A stretch of DNA of 64,000 nucleotides from Octopus vulgaris (taxonomy: Eukaryota), in the NCBI GenBank assembly GCA_951406725.2, contig OX597832.1, positions 48,484,001 to 48,548,000 of the forward strand, given 5' to 3'. The notes beneath the pieces are model-generated. The model had not been told where the DNA came from, did not search any database, and was given only the letters and a program-made list of their open reading frames with translations. How positions within the stretch are numbered: the first letter of the stretch is position 1; each line of letters begins with the position of its first letter. The position numbers were made by a program, and so were the translations under genes. Below are positions 795-64,000 of this stretch, in pieces.

Positions 795-860
795 TAGGCC
801 GCTGGTGGCAAAAGAATTCTACAAAATTTTTTTTTTTTTTTTTTTGCCACCCTATATTGA
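795..860 (+). mobile_element. Orphan terminal hairpin fragment of the 491-nt HHR element, embedded in (TA)n
   Basis: TAGGCCGCTGGTGGCAAAAGAATTCTACAAAAT(T)nGCCACCCTATATTGA matches 46713-46765 apart from T-run length. Confidence 0.85.
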
Positions 861-885
861 TATATATATATATAATATATATATA

Positions 886-20397: not shown

Positions 20398-21315
20398 CCA
20401 TCATCTCAACAGCATTGTGAATTATTTCCAGTCTCATATTTGCAAATAAGAGGATGGGTATCAATATTTGTACGTTTGGTAGTATGCCGATATTTTCACA
20501 TCAAAACATGTATGTACGTACGCATGTATGTATGTATGTATGTATGTATGTATGTATGTATGTATGTATGTATGTATGTATGTATGTATGTATACGTATA
20601 TATATCCATATATATGTATATATATGTATGCATATATACATATGTATATGTATATATATTTATATATATAAAATAAAATCAATAACAGAACACAAGGGAT
20701 ATCGCGGTACACGTGTTTCAATCTTTATAAACGACCTGTTCTTATATCAGTGTATAATAGATATAAAAGATATAAAATATGGTTTAAAACTCTCTTCAGC
20801 CGCATACATTGTTATTCCAAGAAGTTACATCACACTATAAAAGATATGAAAAATATGAAAAGTACATGTAGTATTACACATTATAATAGGTATATCATAT
20901 CTCCTTGAGAAAGTGTATTTGTAAAATTTCGTAACTGTATAACTGTATAAATGTTCATTGGATCTCGAAAATCTGTCCATACTGTATCACCAGTCAACAT
21001 ATTTATATATATATATATGTCTGTATGTATTAATGTATGTATGACTGGTACTTAATTTGATCAACTTCCGGATAAAATGTATTGTCGACCTTGACGAAAT
21101 TTAAAAACAAAACAAAAAAAAACGTCGCGAAATATTTAAAGGTCCTGCATCTATCGCACCATCATCTTCATCGTACAATCGATATTGCCATCGATCGTAT
21201 GTCCTTTTGTTCGACATGGACGATTTTGTCAATCAACCGCTCCTTGTCACGCTCATAATTATGAAAAAATAATTCCTAAAGTAGGCGAATACTAACAATT
21301 TTTTGTGGTTGGGTC

Positions 21316-26438: not shown

Positions 26439-26721
26439 AGATTTTTATGTAAATCTCTTATTTCATATCCATCGGTTTCGTTGTATATTTGAACCCGACT
26501 GTTTTCTTTTTCTGGGCAAAGCCTGTCTTTGGTTTTCAATATTTTGTTTCATAATTCTTGCCAGAAGCGTGTTCAACATTTTGTCCTATTGGCTGTTTAT
26601 ATTTTGATCCCAGTTTTCGTATTTGACTCAAAACCGTACGAAATTGGGCCCTGATTCTAGAACGCCAACTTCTTGCTTTAAAGTAAAGAGTAAGTATCTC
26701 ATTTATTTCTTTTGCCACATG

Positions 26722-26774
26722 TATCACTGACGAAGGGAGGGCTGTTATGAGCTAACTCTGAAATCGGTCCGATA
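26722..26774 (+). ncRNA. Type I hammerhead motif in a PLE pLTR-like segment
   Basis: UAUCA-CUGACGA-AGGG...CUCU-GAA-AUCGGU-C-CGAUA; GUC triplet, near-palindromic stem III. Confidence 0.55.
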
Positions 26775-26966
26775 TGGTAATAATGGAATTTTTTAGAAAT
26801 TTCTGTCGACCTTTCTCGAGTAGCGTGCGTATTGTGAAAAAATTATATGGTTAATGGACAATATGTCCAATTTTTCGGCATAGTTGGCATTAGAAATTTT
26901 TTCGTTTGCTCTTATTTATGAATTGTTTATAAATATATATTTATATATATATATATATAAATATAC

Positions 26967-29897: not shown

Positions 29898-30520
29898 CGG
29901 ATTTGAACTCAGAACATAACGGCAGACGATATACCTATTTCTTTACTACTCACAAGGGGCTAAACCTAGAGGGGACAAACAAGGACAGACAAAGGTATTA
30001 AGTCGATTATATCGACCCCAGTGCGTAACTGGTACTTAATTTATCGACCCCGAAAGGATGAAAGTCAAAGTCGACCTCGGCGGAATTTGAACTCAGAACG
30101 TAACGACAGACGAAATACCTATTTCTTTACTACCCACAAGGGACTAAACACAGAAGGGACAAATAAGGACAGACATAGGTATTAAGTCGATTACATCGAC
30201 CCCAGTGCGTAACTGGTACTTATTTAATCGACTCCGAAAGGATAAAAAGCAAAGTCGACCTCGGCGGAATTTAAACTCAGAACGTAACGGCAGACGATAT
30301 ACCTATTTCTTTATTACCCACAAGGGACTAAACACAGAGGGGACAAACAAGGACAGTCATAGGTATTAAGTCGATTACATCGACCCGGGGGCGTAACTGG
30401 TACTTAATTTATCGACCTCGAAAGGATGAAAGGAAAAGTCGACCTCGGCGGAATTTGAACTCAGAACGTAGCGGCAGACGAAATACCGTTAAGCATTTCG
30501 CCCGGCGTCCTAACGTTTTT
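29898..30520 (-). mobile_element. SINE family A concatemer (one head, three ~180-bp bodies plus a partial)
   Basis: Repeating ACCTATTTCTTTA...GAACTCAGAACGT units. Confidence 0.9.
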
Positions 30521-34687: not shown

Positions 34688-34754
34688 TTCCCATGCCGGG
34701 AATCGAACCCGGGCCGCCTGAGTGAAAGCCAGGAATCCTAACCACTAGACCACA
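34688..34754 (-). pseudogene. tRNA-Glu(TTC) lacking the first 5 nt of the acceptor stem
   Basis: TGTGGTCTAGTGGTTAGGATTCCTGGCTTTCACTCAGGCGGCCCGGGTTCGATTCCCGGCATGGGAA; the expected 5' TCCCA is replaced by a TG repeat. Confidence 0.85.
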
Positions 34755-38729: not shown

Positions 38730-39648
38730 TCAAAATGCTTAGCGATATCTCGTCTGAATGCAAGTTCTGGGTTCAAATTCAGCCGAGGTCGACTTTGCTT
38801 TTCATCCTTTCGGGGTCGATTAAATAAGTACCAGTTACACACTGGGTTCGATATAATCGACTTAATCTGTTTGTCTGTCCTTGTTTGTCCTCTCTGTGTT
38901 TAGCCCCTCGTGGGTAGTAAAGAAATAGATATTTCGTCTGAATGCAAGTCCTGCGTTCAAATTCCACCGAGGTCGACATTGCCTTTCATCCTTTCGGGGT
39001 CGATTAAATAAGTACCAGTTACACACTGGGTTCGATATAATCGACTTAATCTGTTTGTCTGTCCTTGTTTGTCCTCTCTGTGTTTAGCCCTCGTGGGTAG
39101 TAAAGAAATAGATATTTCGTCTGAATGCAAGTCCTGCGTTCAAATTCCACCGAGGTCGACATTGCCTTTCATCCTTTCGGGGTCGATAAGTTAAGTACCA
39201 GTTACGCACTGGGGTCGATATAATCGACTTAATCCGTTTGTCTGTCCTTGTTTGTCTTCTCTGTGTTTAGTCCCTTGTGGGTAGTAAAGAAATAGGTATT
39301 TCGTCTGCCGTTACGTTCTCAGTTCAAATTCCGCCGAAGTGGACTTTACCTTTCATCCTTTCGGGGTCGATTAAGTAAGTACCAGTTACACACTGGCGTC
39401 GATATAATCGACTTAATTCTTTTTGTCTGCCCTTGTTTGTCCCCTCTATGTTTAGCCCCTTGTGGGTAATAAAGAAACAGTTATTTCATCTGAATGCAAG
39501 GCCTGGATTCAAATTCCGCCGAGGTCGACTTTGCCTTTTATCCTTTCAGGGTCGATGATTAAGCACCAGTGAAATACCGTGGTCGATTACATCGACTAGT
39601 CCTTTCCTCCAAATTTCAGGCCTTGTGCCTTTAGCAGAAAAGGATTAT
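38730..39648 (+). mobile_element. SINE family A concatemer, five ~180-bp bodies
   Basis: Direct repeats joined at AAATAG(G/A)TATTTCGTCTG. Confidence 0.9.
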
Positions 39649-43410: not shown

Positions 43411-43464
43411 AGAAGAAACAAAGGTGTTTTGCTGTCAAAATCTTATGCTTCTGGCTACCTTAGA

Positions 43465-43616
43465 GTACAGTAAGGTTCGCTACCACCCCCTGCCGGAGCC
43501 TCGTGGAACTTTATGTTTTCGCTCAATAAACACTCACAAGCCCCGGTCTGGGAATCGAAACCGCGATCCCACGACCGCGAATCCGCTGCTCTAACCACTG
43601 AGCCATTGCGCCTCCA
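43465..43616 (-). mobile_element. SINE family C, 5' part
   Basis: Head match. Confidence 0.8.
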
Positions 43617-43718
43617 CACACATACACACATATATATATATACGCACACGCACACACACATGTACACTCACATGCACACACACATGCACACACATGTATA
43701 TTGTAAGATACTATGCAT

Positions 43719-45145: not shown

Positions 45146-45659
45146 AAATGAGTCGTATAAGATATAAAGAAAAATAATTGCAACGAGGACAAGATAAAAT
45201 AATTAACTACGGTGACTGATGCGAAAAAAATAATTGCAAATTTTTACATGACCGGAGAATAGAAGAAAGTATTATGATAAACAAAGAAGAAAGTGGAGAA
45301 AAATGAAAATAAATAAAATACAGAGGAGAAATAGATAGAAAAATAGAACAAAGAAAAAGAAAGAATCCTGGTAAAAAAAGAAAAACAAAAAAGCAATTAA
45401 GTAAGTGTAATTATGGGTAAATTTGAAATATATATGTGTGTGTGTGTGTGTGTGTATATACATACATACATATATATATATATATTCAGAGGGAGAGAGA
45501 GAGAGAGAGAGATAGAGATAGATAGATAGAGAGATTTGAATGTATGTACGTAAATATATATAGGTATATATATTAATATATATATATATAAATGTATATA
45601 TGTATATATATACATACATATACATATATACAGACCGACAGACATAAATATATACATAC

Positions 45660-45690
<31 letters not shown>

Positions 45691-45834
45691 TACAGTGATG
45701 GATAGATAGTTAGATATATATATATATTAATATATATATATATGTGTGTGTATATATATATACATATATACATACATGCATACATATACATATACATATA
45801 TACAGACAGACATTAATATATACATACATACATA

Positions 45835-45873
<39 letters not shown>

Positions 45874-45878
<5 letters not shown>

Positions 45879-46480
45879 TCAATATAGGGTGGCAAAAAAA
45901 AATTTGTAGAATTCTTTTGCCACCAGCGGCCTAGTAGGAAAAAATTAAATAGTCATAAACCATTTTTACGTTCAACATCACAATCAAGGAACGGCCATAA
46001 TAGGCCATTCACCCACTAGAAATAACAGCCAAAAGCTTTAACCGCAAAATAACATTAATTCAGTAAACCAGGAGAAAATTGAAAAACTTTTACCCTGTAA
46101 TTTCTTAGACGATGCACCGTTTCATCTACCGTTTAATGGTAAACTAACCTGATTAAATTAAATCAAGCCAATCCACCATAGGCCCTTAGACTCATCAGTA
46201 AGAAATAGCCAAGTCGGAACAGATATTTTTCACAAGGCATTCCTCTTGCTACCTCGGCAATATCTGACCTAAAATTTTCAAATCGTCGCACTCGCGCCAA
46301 ATTTATCGGCAGCAAATAAATATAAGCCACCGATTCCATTACGGAACTAACCAGAAAATTCATAATTAATCAATATAGGGTGGCAAAAAAAAATTTTGTA
46401 GAATTCTTTTGCCACCAGCGGCCTAGTAGGAAAAAATTAAATAGTCATAAACCATTTTTACGTTCAACATCACAATCAAG
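45874..46480 (-). mobile_element. 491-nt HHR-bearing unit as a partial tandem (about 1.23 copies)
   Basis: 45874-45988 is repeated at 46365-46480; left end in (TA)n; HHR at 46100-46206 on the minus strand. Confidence 0.85.
46100..46206 (-). ncRNA. Type I hammerhead ribozyme, canonical core, long stem II
   Basis: Reverse complement of 46929-47035. Confidence 0.85.
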
Positions 46481-46483
46481 TCG

Positions 46484-46591
46484 GTTCCGACTTGGCTATT
46501 TCTTACTGATGAGTCTAAGGGCCTATGGTGAATTGGCTTGATTTAATTTAATCAGGTTAGTTTACCATTAAACGGTAGATGAAACATCGTC
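46484..46591 (+). ncRNA. Inverted partial hammerhead copy ending at the GUC site
   Basis: GTTCCGACTTGG...CTGATGA...GATGAAACATCGTC followed by AAAAA. Confidence 0.75.
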
Positions 46592-46712
46592 AAAAAGAGA
46601 GAGAAAGAGAGAGAAATCCAGAAAGCCAGTAATAAAACGAGCAATAAACAAAACTGAACTGAATAAACGTTTGTAAGCAATATCAGAAGATTGAAGTCTT
46701 TTAAGAATCTAC

Positions 46713-47156
46713 AGGCCGCTGGTGGCAAAAGAATTCTACAAAATTTTTTTGCCACCCTATATTGATTAATTATGAATTTTCTGGTTAGTTCCGTAATGGA
46801 ATCGGTGGCTTATATTTATTTGCTGCCGATAAATTTGGCGCGAGTGCGACGATTTGAAAATTTTAGGTCAGATATTGCCGAGGTAGCAAGAGGAATGCCT
46901 CGTGAAAAATATCTGTTCCGACTTGGCTATTTCTTACTGATGAGTCTAAGGGCCTATGGTGGATTGGCTTGATTTAATTTAATCAGGTTAGTTTACCATT
47001 AAACGGTAGATGAAACGGTGCATCGTCTAAGAAATTACAGGGTAAAAGTTTTCAATTTTCTCCTGGTTTACTGAATTAATGTTATTTTGCGGTTAAAGCT
47101 TTTGGCTGTTATTTCTAGTGGGTGAATGGCCTATTATGGCCGTTCCTTGATTGTGA

Positions 47157-47158
<2 letters not shown>
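46713..47158 (+). mobile_element. Inverted, circularly permuted copy of the 491-nt unit
   Basis: Reverse complement of ~45976-46423; ends in (TA)n. Confidence 0.9.
46929..47035 (+). ncRNA. Type I hammerhead ribozyme, predicted cleavage after C47027
   Basis: Stem I AUUUCUUA/UAAGAAAU (8 bp), CUGAUGA, stem II GUCUA/UAGAU plus a 19-pair hairpin, GAAA, stem III ACGGU-GC-AUCGU, GUC triplet. Confidence 0.85.
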
Positions 47159-47201
<43 letters not shown>

Positions 47202-47730
47202 CATGTATTTATATATATATATAATGTGCAAATGTCACCACTTCCATACATGTTAATGTATATATGCCTGTTGGTGTGTGCATGCGTGTGTGTGTGTTTG
47301 TATATGGTGAGAGGGAGAGAGAGAGAGAGAGAAATCCAGAAAGCCAGTAATGAAACGAGCAATAAATGAAACTGAACTAAATAAACGTTTGTAAGCAATA
47401 TCAGAAGATTGAAGTCTTTTAAGAATCCACAGAGGGAGGACACAAGAAATACATTTTTTTATACAAGAGTTTAAAATCGCTTGAAGACACGAACGGAATT
47501 ATAGAGTGGGTGGTTATGCTACTGCTGCTGCTGCTGCTAACGACGACGACAACGATGATTATAATGATGATGATGATGATGATGAATGAAGAGGTGATGA
47601 TGAAGGTGATGATAATGAAATGGAAGAGGTTCGTGACAATGATGATGATGATGGTGGTGATGATGATGACGACGTTGACGACGACGATGATATTCAAGAT
47701 GGTGATGATGATGATGATGATGGGGAAGGG

Positions 47731-48948: not shown

Positions 48949-49243
48949 CGTGATCACCGTGACCGACCAGGCTATCAGATGTTATTACACATCGCTTCGC
49001 ATTGTTTTAGCCTTCAAATGACGCCACCCCGCAGGCTAAGCGAGCAGGCCAACAGAAGAAAGAGTGAGAGAAAGTTGTGGCGAAAGAGTAAAGCAGGGAT
49101 CGCCACCACCCCCTGCCGGAGCGTCGTGGAGCTTTTAGGTGTTTTCGCTCAATAAACACTCACAACGCTCAGTCTGGGAATCGAAACCGCGATCCTACGA
49201 CCGCGAGTCCGCTGCCCTAACCACTGGGCCATTGCGCCTCCAC
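48945..49243 (-). mobile_element. SINE family C with an alternative 3' tail
   Basis: Head and central part match 52778; the tail ends ...GGTCGGTCACGGTGATCACGGTGA. Confidence 0.85.
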
Positions 49244-49305
49244 TTATATATTTATATATATATCGCTTATTAGGCTGGTAAATGGACAAACGTTATGTAT
49301 GTATA

Positions 49306-53388: not shown

Positions 53389-53429
<41 letters not shown>

Positions 53430-53476
53430 GTGAATTGAAGAAATGGAGCTGAACGAAGATTGAACAGAAATCGTTT

Positions 53477-53569
53477 TATTTCATTCTACACGTGTTTCGA
53501 AAGGCACAATTTACCAAAATCCGATTGAGTAATGAGACCATATTGTGTCTTTCTCTTCAGGAAGAAATA
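53477..53569 (-). ncRNA. Type I hammerhead ribozyme (inverted copy)
   Basis: Reverse complement of 53670-53762. Confidence 0.8.
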
Positions 53570-53669
53570 GGAAATCCGTTGGAAAGTTTTTGCCATGGGC
53601 TCTTAGGAGCCTAGTTCGATTTGTTTTGCTCCGCCTCTGTTCTGTTTTTGTTTTTTCCAACGGATTTCC

Positions 53670-53762
53670 TATTTCTTCCTGAAGAGAAAGACACAATATG
53701 GTCTCATTACTCAATCGGATTTTGGTAAATTGTGCCTTTCGAAACACGTGTAGAATGAAATA
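53670..53762 (+). ncRNA. Type I hammerhead ribozyme, predicted cleavage after A53752
   Basis: UAUUUC-UUC-CUGAAGA-GAAAG-A-CACAAU...AUUGUG-C-CUUUC-GAA-ACACGUGU-A-GAA-U-GAAAUA. Confidence 0.8.
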
Positions 53763-53969
53763 AAACGATTTCTGTTCAATCTTCGTTCAGCTCCATTTCT
53801 TCAATTCACCAATAATATTAAAATTCAATTATCCGCACCAACGCACGGTTGCAACACCATATGGTTGTACCTCCAACCGTGCTGTCTTCTGGTGTGATTT
53901 TTGCTACCAAGGTATCGGTTAAACTTTTGATTAATCTGCTACAAGATTATTCATCTTTCTATTTCACAT

Positions 53970-62386: not shown

Positions 62387-62480
<94 letters not shown>

Positions 62481-63171
62481 GCAAGATTTTTTATGTGAAG
62501 TCGTGTGTTGAAACAGATATTGTTATATTTCGGAATGGTCATATTGCCAGTTTAGCCAATAAAAACACACGCACTATATATTTGGTGTTATTTTGCTTCA
62601 GTGATATTTATTTTTTACATTAATCTTAATCTTATTTCGGCCAAAGTTCTTTCGTCACACTCCTGTGACCGCATCAGTGGTCCTTTGTTTTCTTCTCACT
62701 TACTTGTGTCTCTCCTTACTAACCGTCAGCCATTTTGTATTTCTATTGTATGTCTTCATTTGCGCATGCTTATATCTCTATGTGCGTCTATGTTTATTTA
62801 GTGTGTGTGGGGGGGGATGCCTGTAATATTTGTATCTTCTGGTTATATACATTCTTGTAATTTGTATTTTGTTTTTGTTGTTGTTGCTTTTGTTCTAATT
62901 TTGTTCATGTGTTTACATCCACCCATTATTATCATTACATATGCTTGTATGTATGTATAACAACAATATTAGTAATAATAATAATAAATCTAATCGAAAA
63001 AAAAAAAAAAAAGAATATACATATACATATATATATATACATACATATACATATACATATATATATATATACATATATACACACATATATACACATATAC
63101 ATATATATAGATATTCATTTCTATTTCTTTAATTACCTGTGTATTTATTATGTTTGCAGGATCCACTATTG

Positions 63172-63766
63172 TCATATGTTGTGGTGTGCGCTATTGCTCC
63201 ATTCTAGTTTTCTATTCAGGCTAGGTTTATTTTCTATTATATGTGTAGCTTCTGTAATTTGTCTAATTGTTGCATCTGTTCTATGTGTGGACAATATCTT
63301 AATCTCTATGTTATTGATTGATCCCCCGTGTTCTTGTTCGGCGTGTTGGTACAGAATCGATGAGCTTTTACCTTCCTTGAGTTGCCTCCAATGTTCATTC
63401 ACCCGCTCACCAATGCTTCTTGCAGTTTCCCCTACGTATGTTACTGTCTTGTTACTGCATCGTCCCTCTATACATCTTATACTATAGACCACATTTCTGG
63501 CTTTACAGTTCGTTTGTGGGCTAAATCTACATACAGTGCAATAGTTATCCGTACAGAGAGTTCTACTAAAAGGATAGCTTCTACCAATTATAGATCTGAT
63601 AGGGTTGCCTGGCTTTTCAACAACCTTAATTCTTAGTTTAAGTTTATCTAGGGTCCTTCTAAAGCGGTACGCTAGTTCACCTCCAGGGGTGGTGTCAACG
63701 AACATGACACTCTGGTATTTATGGCTATCATACCAAGAGTTGGCCTTCCCTATTTTCCTATGGCTC
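63172..63766 (-). CDS. PLE ORF C-terminal fragment: Cys-rich linker plus GIY-YIG endonuclease
   Basis: FVDTTPGGEL...CTDNYCTVC...NCKARNVVYSIRC...YVGETARSIGERVNEH...LYQH...EH...RQITEATHI...KPSLNRK; the frame is open but RT is absent. Confidence 0.9.
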
Positions 63767-63809
63767 ACGGTTAGTAAGGAGAGACACAAGTAAGTGAGAA
63801 GAAAACAAA

Positions 63810-63854
63810 GGACCACTGATGCGGTCACAGGAGTGTGACGAAAGAACTTTGGCC
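63810..63854 (+). ncRNA. Hammerhead-like motif with variant core in the pLTR (mirror copy at 62639-62683, -)
   Basis: GACCA-CUGAUGC-G-GUCAC(AGGAGU)GUGAC-GAAA-GAAC-UU-UGGCC. Confidence 0.55.
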
Positions 63855-63968
63855 GAAATAAGATTAAGATTAATGTAAAAAATAAATATCACTGAAGCAA
63901 AATAACACCAAATATATAGTGCGTGTGTTTTTATTGGCTAAACTGGCAATATGACCATTCCGAAATAT

Positions 63969-64000
<32 letters not shown>

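Follow-up and report, generated by a model that had tools for sequence, protein, structure and literature searches.

How did near-identical copies of a short non-coding unit with a hammerhead ribozyme come to lie head-to-tail and head-to-head between two microsatellites in the genome of Octopus vulgaris, and is this unit an RNA-borne mobile element in its own right, a terminal part of a larger retroelement, a satellite, or a product of assembly? The locus lies in a stretch of 64,000 nucleotides (GenBank assembly GCA_951406725.2, contig OX597832.1, positions 48,484,001 to 48,548,000), hereafter the window, in whose coordinates all positions are given. We conclude that the element is real, young and abundant, and that it belongs to a class already described, the family itself being apparently unreported. 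Most probably, the unit is a non-coding, high-copy, non-autonomous non-LTR retrozyme, with an RNA that is predicted to be cut as a dimer and that was likely copied into (TA)n in trans by the reverse transcriptase (RT) and endonuclease of a Penelope-like element (PLE).

The unit (45874-46364; GC content 36.5%) has a period of 491 nt, with anchor words at 45875 and 46366 offset by this distance, and the longest stop-to-stop frame derived from unit sequence alone is 71 aa; both the period and the non-coding character had been proposed in a sequence-only reading of this DNA, and both hold. The copies and the features around them are collected in Table 1. Copy A, which in ribozyme sense adjoins the left (TA)n with its 3' end, and copy B together span ~606 nt, or 1.24 units, so that the locus itself does not contain two intact ribozymes in direct tandem. 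The inverted partial copy noted in the earlier reading corresponds to copy C, which aligns at 98.1% identity over 46481-46585 and then on to 46591 past the deletion. At the B/C junction, we infer a snap-back combined with a template switch. Copy D adjoins the right (TA)n with its 3' end, and the inverted alignment of 46709-47158 with 45976-46429 is 98.9% identical over 454 nt, rising to 99.5% where it overlaps copy A (390 nt). The description of this copy as near-identical, inverted and continuous through the unit junction is thus accurate, but it is not a full copy, being ~445-450 nt long. Because copy D falls wholly inside the A+B span, it is not on its own independent proof of permutation. 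The TA-rich arrays noted at both outer ends are in place.

Table 1. Features of the locus and of related sequences, in window positions
Feature	Position	Strand	Description
Separate short insertion, same family	796..861	+	Unit positions 63 to 5, 66 nt, inside (TA)n
Left TA-rich microsatellite	45554..45875		Insertion target
Copy A	45874..46364	-	One complete 491-nt unit; ribozyme sense is minus
Strong hairpin	45888..45924	-	Just 5' of the preferred 3' end; in copies A, B and D and in the 796-861 fragment
Type I hammerhead, copy A	46100..46206	-	Core CUGAUGA at 46198-46192; predicted cut between 46108 and 46107
Copy B	46365..46480	-	Direct continuation, unit positions 1-115, 99.1%
B/C junction	46477..46494		8-bp fold-back palindrome and 4-nt microhomology
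Copy C	46481..46591	+	Inverted and incomplete; most of the ribozyme retained, 5 nt of stem III deleted
E1	46597..46713 (alignment to 46714, 118 nt)		Host DNA, not part of the element; duplicates 47315-47432 at 94.9%
Copy D	46714..47158	+	Inverted and permuted: unit positions 62 to 1 followed by 491 to 103, through the junction
Type I hammerhead, copy D	46929..47035	+	Predicted cut after 47027
Right (TA)n microsatellite	47159..47223		Insertion target
E2	47315..47432		Downstream twin of E1
5'-truncated Penelope-like element	62474-63976		GIY-YIG frame 63175-63759 (-)

The duplicated host tract E1/E2 carries 6 substitutions in 118 nt, compared with 1 in 390 nt between the element copies (p 0.0008), and hence looks older than these copies, as far as divergence can date it. 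Across the slightly longer intervals 46592-46713 and 47310-47432, there are 9 differences, all of them transitions, with no indels; in 6 of the transitions, E1 has A and E2 has G, and 4 of those 6 lie in a (GA)n run. A simple target-site duplication upon insertion of copy D is a doubtful origin for E1 and E2, given their 5% divergence. The fragment of the family at 796-861 has 4 matches in the window, compared with 0 in 100 shuffles; its 5' end is that of copy D, and its 3' end lies 4 nt from that of copy A. The 5' end common to copy D (46713-46714) and this distant fragment (796-797) falls at unit position 62-63, 9 nt beyond the strong hairpin, and is possibly a transcript start or a site where reverse transcription stopped. 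Neither the duplicated host tract nor this fragment appears in the sequence-only reading.

The family is not confined to the window. Parts of the unit occur in 20 of the 24 public sequencing runs listed (10 studies; four organism labels and one metagenome with a small share). Four of the 24 runs, X1, X2, X5 and X19, were aligned to the 491-nt monomer at 85% likeness; X20, which is RNA on record and has a share of 0.06, was outside this set, whereas X5 and X19 are marked as RNA by guess and may be shallow DNA, with contigs that lack starts and strand and a depth of 20-200. The aligned contigs number 4446, 11121, 27 and 43, respectively, that is, thousands in each of the two deep DNA runs. The head-to-tail joint from 46364 to 45874 is present in all four runs (7, 11, 1 and 1 contigs, under two organism labels), so that the closed 491-nt map is a trait of the family, and in X5 and X19 the depth at the joint (22.3 and 17.2) equals that of the adjoining end bin. 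The share of contigs that continue into unlike sequence is 0, 0, 0 and 0.11, and the loose ends listed for X19 include (TA)n and a diverged relative. No contig piece among those listed spans the entire unit, and the end table of the four runs shows no pile-up of contig ends. The most variable stretch of the unit is 46229-46255, with many substitutions, indels and loose ends among copies; the copies fall into subfamilies, and the alleles common to A, C and D are, by summed depth, the less frequent ones in X1 and X2. Window-like alleles take a greater share in X5 and X19, which we do not read as preferential transcription because these runs may be DNA and the summing of contigs is biased. Two exact unit patterns had 0 matches in metagenome contigs and one had 0 in viral contigs; at exact-match sensitivity, nothing in these collections points to an origin from a viroid-like agent or a virus.

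Both copy A and copy D contain, as had been claimed for full copies, a type I hammerhead with the complete core and three stems: stem I (8 bp), CUGAUGA, stem II (5 bp), GAAA, stem III, which is short, and GUC. Within the loop of stem II there is a 19-bp hairpin, 6 of whose pairs are G-U, and the stem III strand consists of 12 self-complementary nucleotides. A scan of the window at Rfam gathering level retrieved only a tRNA and did not pick up the hammerhead of the unit, which matches Hammerhead_1 with 22 bits (E 0.023; gathering score 34), a low score that is presumably due to the long insert in stem II; the other 30 of 31 relaxed Rfam matches, none of which reaches its cut-off, were regarded as chance. 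A relaxed hammerhead pattern arose in 6 of 5000 shuffles of the unit. The RNA of the unit is predicted to be strongly self-paired (66% of positions; z -4.5 linear and -4.6 circular), and the circular fold is strand-specific, at -136.8 kcal/mol (z -4.6) for the sense strand versus -79.8 (z -2.1) for the antisense strand, with 40 shuffles each.

Folding further predicts a switch that depends on dimerization. A single ribozyme is expected to misfold (-34.2, versus -30.0 for the active form), whereas two ribozymes cofold at -77.9 into a double hammerhead, in which a 12-bp stem III joins the two molecules and both cores are free, compared with twice -34.2 for two misfolded monomers. In an in-silico tandem, the predicted probability of stem III is 0.83 between ribozymes and 0.0002 within one, with the second core only partly free, and in the monomer circle stem III has a probability of 0.017. 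Since stem III is thus predicted to form only between two ribozymes, cutting is expected in tandem RNA and would be off in the monomer circle, a logic known for metazoan hammerheads (PMC4209133). Variants of stem III, reverse-complemented by hand, are found among the loose ends: CGGUAUACCG (3 contigs, X2) and CAAUGCAUUG (1 contig, X19), as opposed to CGGUGCAUCG. All three sequences are self-complementary, and CGGUAUACCG swaps the central pair of stem III, which can form only in the dimer. A common variant changes the cut base, C17, to A, and two G-U pairs become A-U; under the NUH rule, A is permitted as well as C at the cleavage base of hammerheads. CUGAUGA and GAAA are free of variants among the 40 of 69 variant rows listed. 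The common variants at 46175 and 46128 would break pairs of stem II, barring changes of their partners outside those 40 of 69 rows, and G10.1-C11.1, a pair that PLE and canonical hammerheads strongly conserve (PMC4209133), is replaced by G-U or A-U in this unit; we count both features against the retrozyme reading.

The ends of the copies bear on the way in which the RNA might return to DNA. In ribozyme sense, the 3' ends of copy A, copy D and the 796-861 fragment all point outward into (TA)n, at unit positions 1, 103 and 5, respectively; one X5 contig joins (TA)n one base from the 3' end of copy D and one X19 contig does so behind 46317. Copy C, after its 5-nt deletion, ends exactly at the predicted cleavage base (GUC); the chance that one of four ends hits the cut is 0.008 for an exact hit and 0.04 within 2 nt. 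The last 6 nt of copy C also align in register, at 4 of 6 positions, with the flank upstream of E2, and we regard a cleavage end as the probable origin of this terminus, rather than a diverged flank. Of the 6 internal skip joints in the contigs, 3 are compatible with a start at 46106-46107, where a cleaved monomer is predicted to have its 5' end; such a concentration was reached in 55 of 400000 simulations, or in 1481 of 400000 when the two X1 joints are counted as a single event, under a uniform null that takes no account of sequence bias and for a pattern noticed post hoc. Each of these three joints is a single contig with sides of 23-24 nt and an intervening sequence that is not known. As read from sequence, the breakpoints at the predicted cut are likely a trace of how such RNAs return to DNA, and some of them point to linear, cleaved RNA as the template.

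Several features of the unit would also be expected from the pseudo-LTR (pLTR) of an autonomous PLE, of which the locus would then hold 5'-truncated, tandem and inverted pieces, with no free cycle of a 491-nt RNA. Indeed, pLTRs bear dimer-type hammerheads with a palindromic helix III (PMC4209133), a partial tandem with an inverted copy is typical of PLEs, the retrozymes of Xenopus are related to pLTRs (Li, Clavereau and Pollet 2026, bioRxiv 10.64898/2026.07.22.740005), and a rare autonomous partner could sit among 148 loose ends beyond those listed. However, both the window and all four aligned runs show the unit continuing into a further unit, which leaves no room for an ORF; in the two deep DNA runs, none of the contigs continues into unlike sequence; and a coding signal is absent, given the shortness of the frames and 0 Pfam matches for all 4 unit-only frames tested. 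Nor does the unit flank an RT and GIY-YIG ORF anywhere in the window. We therefore consider it unlikely that the unit is simply the pLTR of a long PLE, the case named by the sequence-only reading as fatal to its proposal.

It is also quite unlikely, in our assessment, that the family is a satellite or minisatellite derived from a retrozyme or pLTR and spread at the DNA level, by unequal crossing-over and fold-back repair at microsatellites, with the ribozyme now irrelevant. Copy D, lying inside the A+B span, could be a local inverted copy, the B/C junction is of the fold-back type, the E1/E2 duplication apparently predates the element copies, and local amplification by unequal crossing-over is discussed by Li et al. 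2026; nevertheless, a separate insertion into (TA)n 45 kb away has the 5' end of copy D, the contigs of X5 and X19 enter (TA)n at differing positions, breakpoints cluster at the predicted cut, the stem III variants stay self-complementary, and the fold is strand-specific, with many G-U pairs. Similarly unlikely is a genuine family whose tandem and inverted arrangement at this locus is a mis-assembly, for example, of two haplotypes joined across microsatellites. Structures of this sort do trouble assemblers, E1 and E2, 5% apart, could be alleles, base 46234 of copy A is absent from all four runs, and the alignment of the runs covered the monomer, not the B/C, C/E1 and E1/D junctions. Against this, the junctions carry microhomology and a snap-back, of the kinds that repair makes, two unrelated elements in the window have the same layout, and E1 and E2 differ by substitutions without indels; moreover, a mis-assembly would leave the conclusion on the family standing.

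The preferred reading, a retrozyme mobilized by a PLE, requires a helper, for which the earlier reading had pointed to a PLE enzyme like the one at 63 kb. The GIY-YIG domain of the 63-kb frame scores 20.8 bits with Pfam (cut-off 22.6), and 13-18% of the members of the frame's Atlas neighbours (at 0.97) carry GIY-YIG; a CX4CXXC motif lies upstream and a stop follows the domain, so that, by published description, the element is Neptune/Nematis-like. The first 43 aa of the 238-aa frame derive from a 217-nt inverted repeat (99.5%); a tail of 43 nt is present on one side only, and (TA)n borders the structure on either side. Near 62680 (-), a hammerhead-like motif with CUGAUGC for CUGAUGA can be read by eye. 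A motif scan found no RT in the window, this copy included, and shared sequence between the unit and the 3' part of this PLE was rejected (score 21, shuffle mean 21); local alignments of the unit with this part and with the ribozyme region at 26.7 kb scored 21-24, within 200 shuffles each. Thus, of the proposed mobilization in trans, the PLE-like layout is upheld, whereas the 63-kb piece, lacking both an RT and likeness to the unit, shows the kind of helper and not the helper itself. The head-to-head, (TA)n-flanked layout recurs at 62474-63976 and 53421-53966, in elements unrelated to the unit, so that a (TA)n-directed machinery that produces this layout likely operates in this genome.

The element at 53421-53966 is a second, unrelated hammerhead-like family, with a 165-nt inverted repeat at 100% identity, 3' ends in (TA)n, and cores at 53560 (-) and 53679 (+) that have a long stem II, a palindromic stem III and a weak stem I. 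Single hammerhead-like motifs with a self-complementary stem III were found in a relaxed scan at 20690-20810 (-) and 26719-26782 (+), and the genome seems rich in dimer-type hammerheads. Other repeats of the window include tandem arrays with a period of 184 nt (29901-30487 and 38744-39597), putatively an octopus-type SINE-derived repeat; a tRNA-like match at 34694-34754 (-) (Rfam, 44.1 bits, model positions 6-65), either a truncated tRNA gene or the head of a SINE; and a dispersed repeat pair (43462-43637 and 49085-49263), 86-88% alike and 5.6 kb apart.

Going beyond the retrozyme reading itself, we tentatively propose, while holding it somewhat less likely than its negation, that the copies record in the genome how cleaved monomers and RNA longer than the unit are both reverse-transcribed by a Penelope-like enzyme that targets (TA)n and primes on both strands, and that a ribozyme active only as a dimer serves as a switch by which tandem RNA is cut and the circle left intact. 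Under the preferred retrozyme reading, the self-complementary stem III strands of two ribozymes in one tandem transcript would pair, and cleavage at GUC or GUA would set 491-nt monomers free; in a putative, optional step, monomers would be ligated into circles, in which the core is predicted to be mispaired and the ribozyme off. The Penelope-like enzyme would cut both strands within (TA)n and prime one cDNA at each end, with reverse transcription starting at internal AT-rich spots (unit positions 1-5 and 103-104) or, as in copy C, at the cleaved 3' end. Such two-end priming would give rise to head-to-head inserts joined by microhomology, and template jumps would account for A+B, copy C and the snap-back. 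The A+B insert exceeds one unit and hence calls either for a template that is multimeric or circular or for a template jump, so that the multimeric or circular template of the sequence-only reading is retained as one of the options, although some breakpoints suggest linear, cleaved RNA. Assays with a purified PLE protein showed that it both cuts and extends the two DNA strands, favors AT-rich targets and begins synthesis at internal sites of its RNA (PMC11167929), properties that fit two cDNAs primed from the ends of one break, and PLE insertions show traits matching this locus (bioRxiv 2021.04.23.441226).

Our literature search found no report of this 491-nt family or of a cephalopod retrozyme, subscription papers being mostly outside its coverage, and a repeat annotation of Octopus vulgaris contains 0 mentions of hammerhead, ribozyme or retrozyme; for its host group, this may be the first retrozyme on record. 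The value of the locus lies in its insertion footprints, left by a young, abundant family with sharp ends. The integration of animal retrozymes is still treated as a hypothesis (PMC7229834), Li et al. 2026 call for work on mobilization, and the role of the hammerhead in Penelope-like transposition is open, the ribozyme being dispensable in vitro (PMC11167929). Breakpoints at the cut site, together with the dimer switch, make the question of retrozyme integration testable, and the ends of copies on the 491-nt circle could tell templates of cleaved RNA, circle and uncut multimer apart. If true, the proposed mechanism would provide direct evidence for the hypothetical mobility of animal retrozymes and a real role for the cut, in a genome with several such ribozyme families.

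Among known systems, the plant LTR retrozymes are the most distant: they carry type III hammerheads in LTRs, a PBS and PPT, and a 4-bp target-site duplication, whereas the hammerhead here is of type I and a short target duplication would not be discernible inside (TA)n. The hammerheads of newt satellite 2 and of the Schistosoma satellites (PMC7229834, PMC4209133) resemble the unit in occurring as tandem repeats and acting as double hammerheads, being transcribed and active in multimers, but they differ in sequence and size, and the insertions described here are dispersed and targeted to microsatellites. With the pLTR hammerheads of PLEs (PMC4209133; bioRxiv 2021.04.23.441226), the unit shares the palindromic helix III, the partial tandem with an inverted copy and the AT-rich or (TA)n targets; unlike them, it adjoins no RT or GIY-YIG ORF and has a full 8-bp stem I, with no extra base after position 9. 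The internal starts of reverse transcription recall PAc of Anolis (PMC11167929), but several breakpoints of the unit lie at the predicted cut, whereas the RNA-seq reads of PAc neither began nor ended at the cut. Cleavage is not needed for insertion in vitro (PMC11167929), and of the 9 dimers from Xenopus, a single one cleaved in vitro (Li et al. 2026); we count both results against the retrozyme reading.

Closest are the non-LTR retrozymes of animals. Cleavage and circles have been shown for those of coral, mussel and axolotl (Cervera and de la Pena 2020, PMC7229834), dimer-dependent cleavage has been shown for those of axolotl, and vertebrate retrozymes are PLE derivatives of 51-972 bp (Li et al. 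2026). The unit differs in the long hairpin of its stem II and in a locus that is a head-to-head (TA)n insertion, not a long array, with 1.24 units where Li et al. 2026 call active those loci with at least 2 consecutive units bearing intact ribozymes; its 491 nt lie above the 170-400 nt of PMC7229834 and within the range of Li et al. 2026. It resembles these retrozymes in being short, non-coding, of low GC content (36.5%, below 45%) and self-paired, with one type I hammerhead, and in occurring as head-to-tail units at high copy number and, to judge from the truncated GIY-YIG piece in the window, perhaps also in living beside PLEs.
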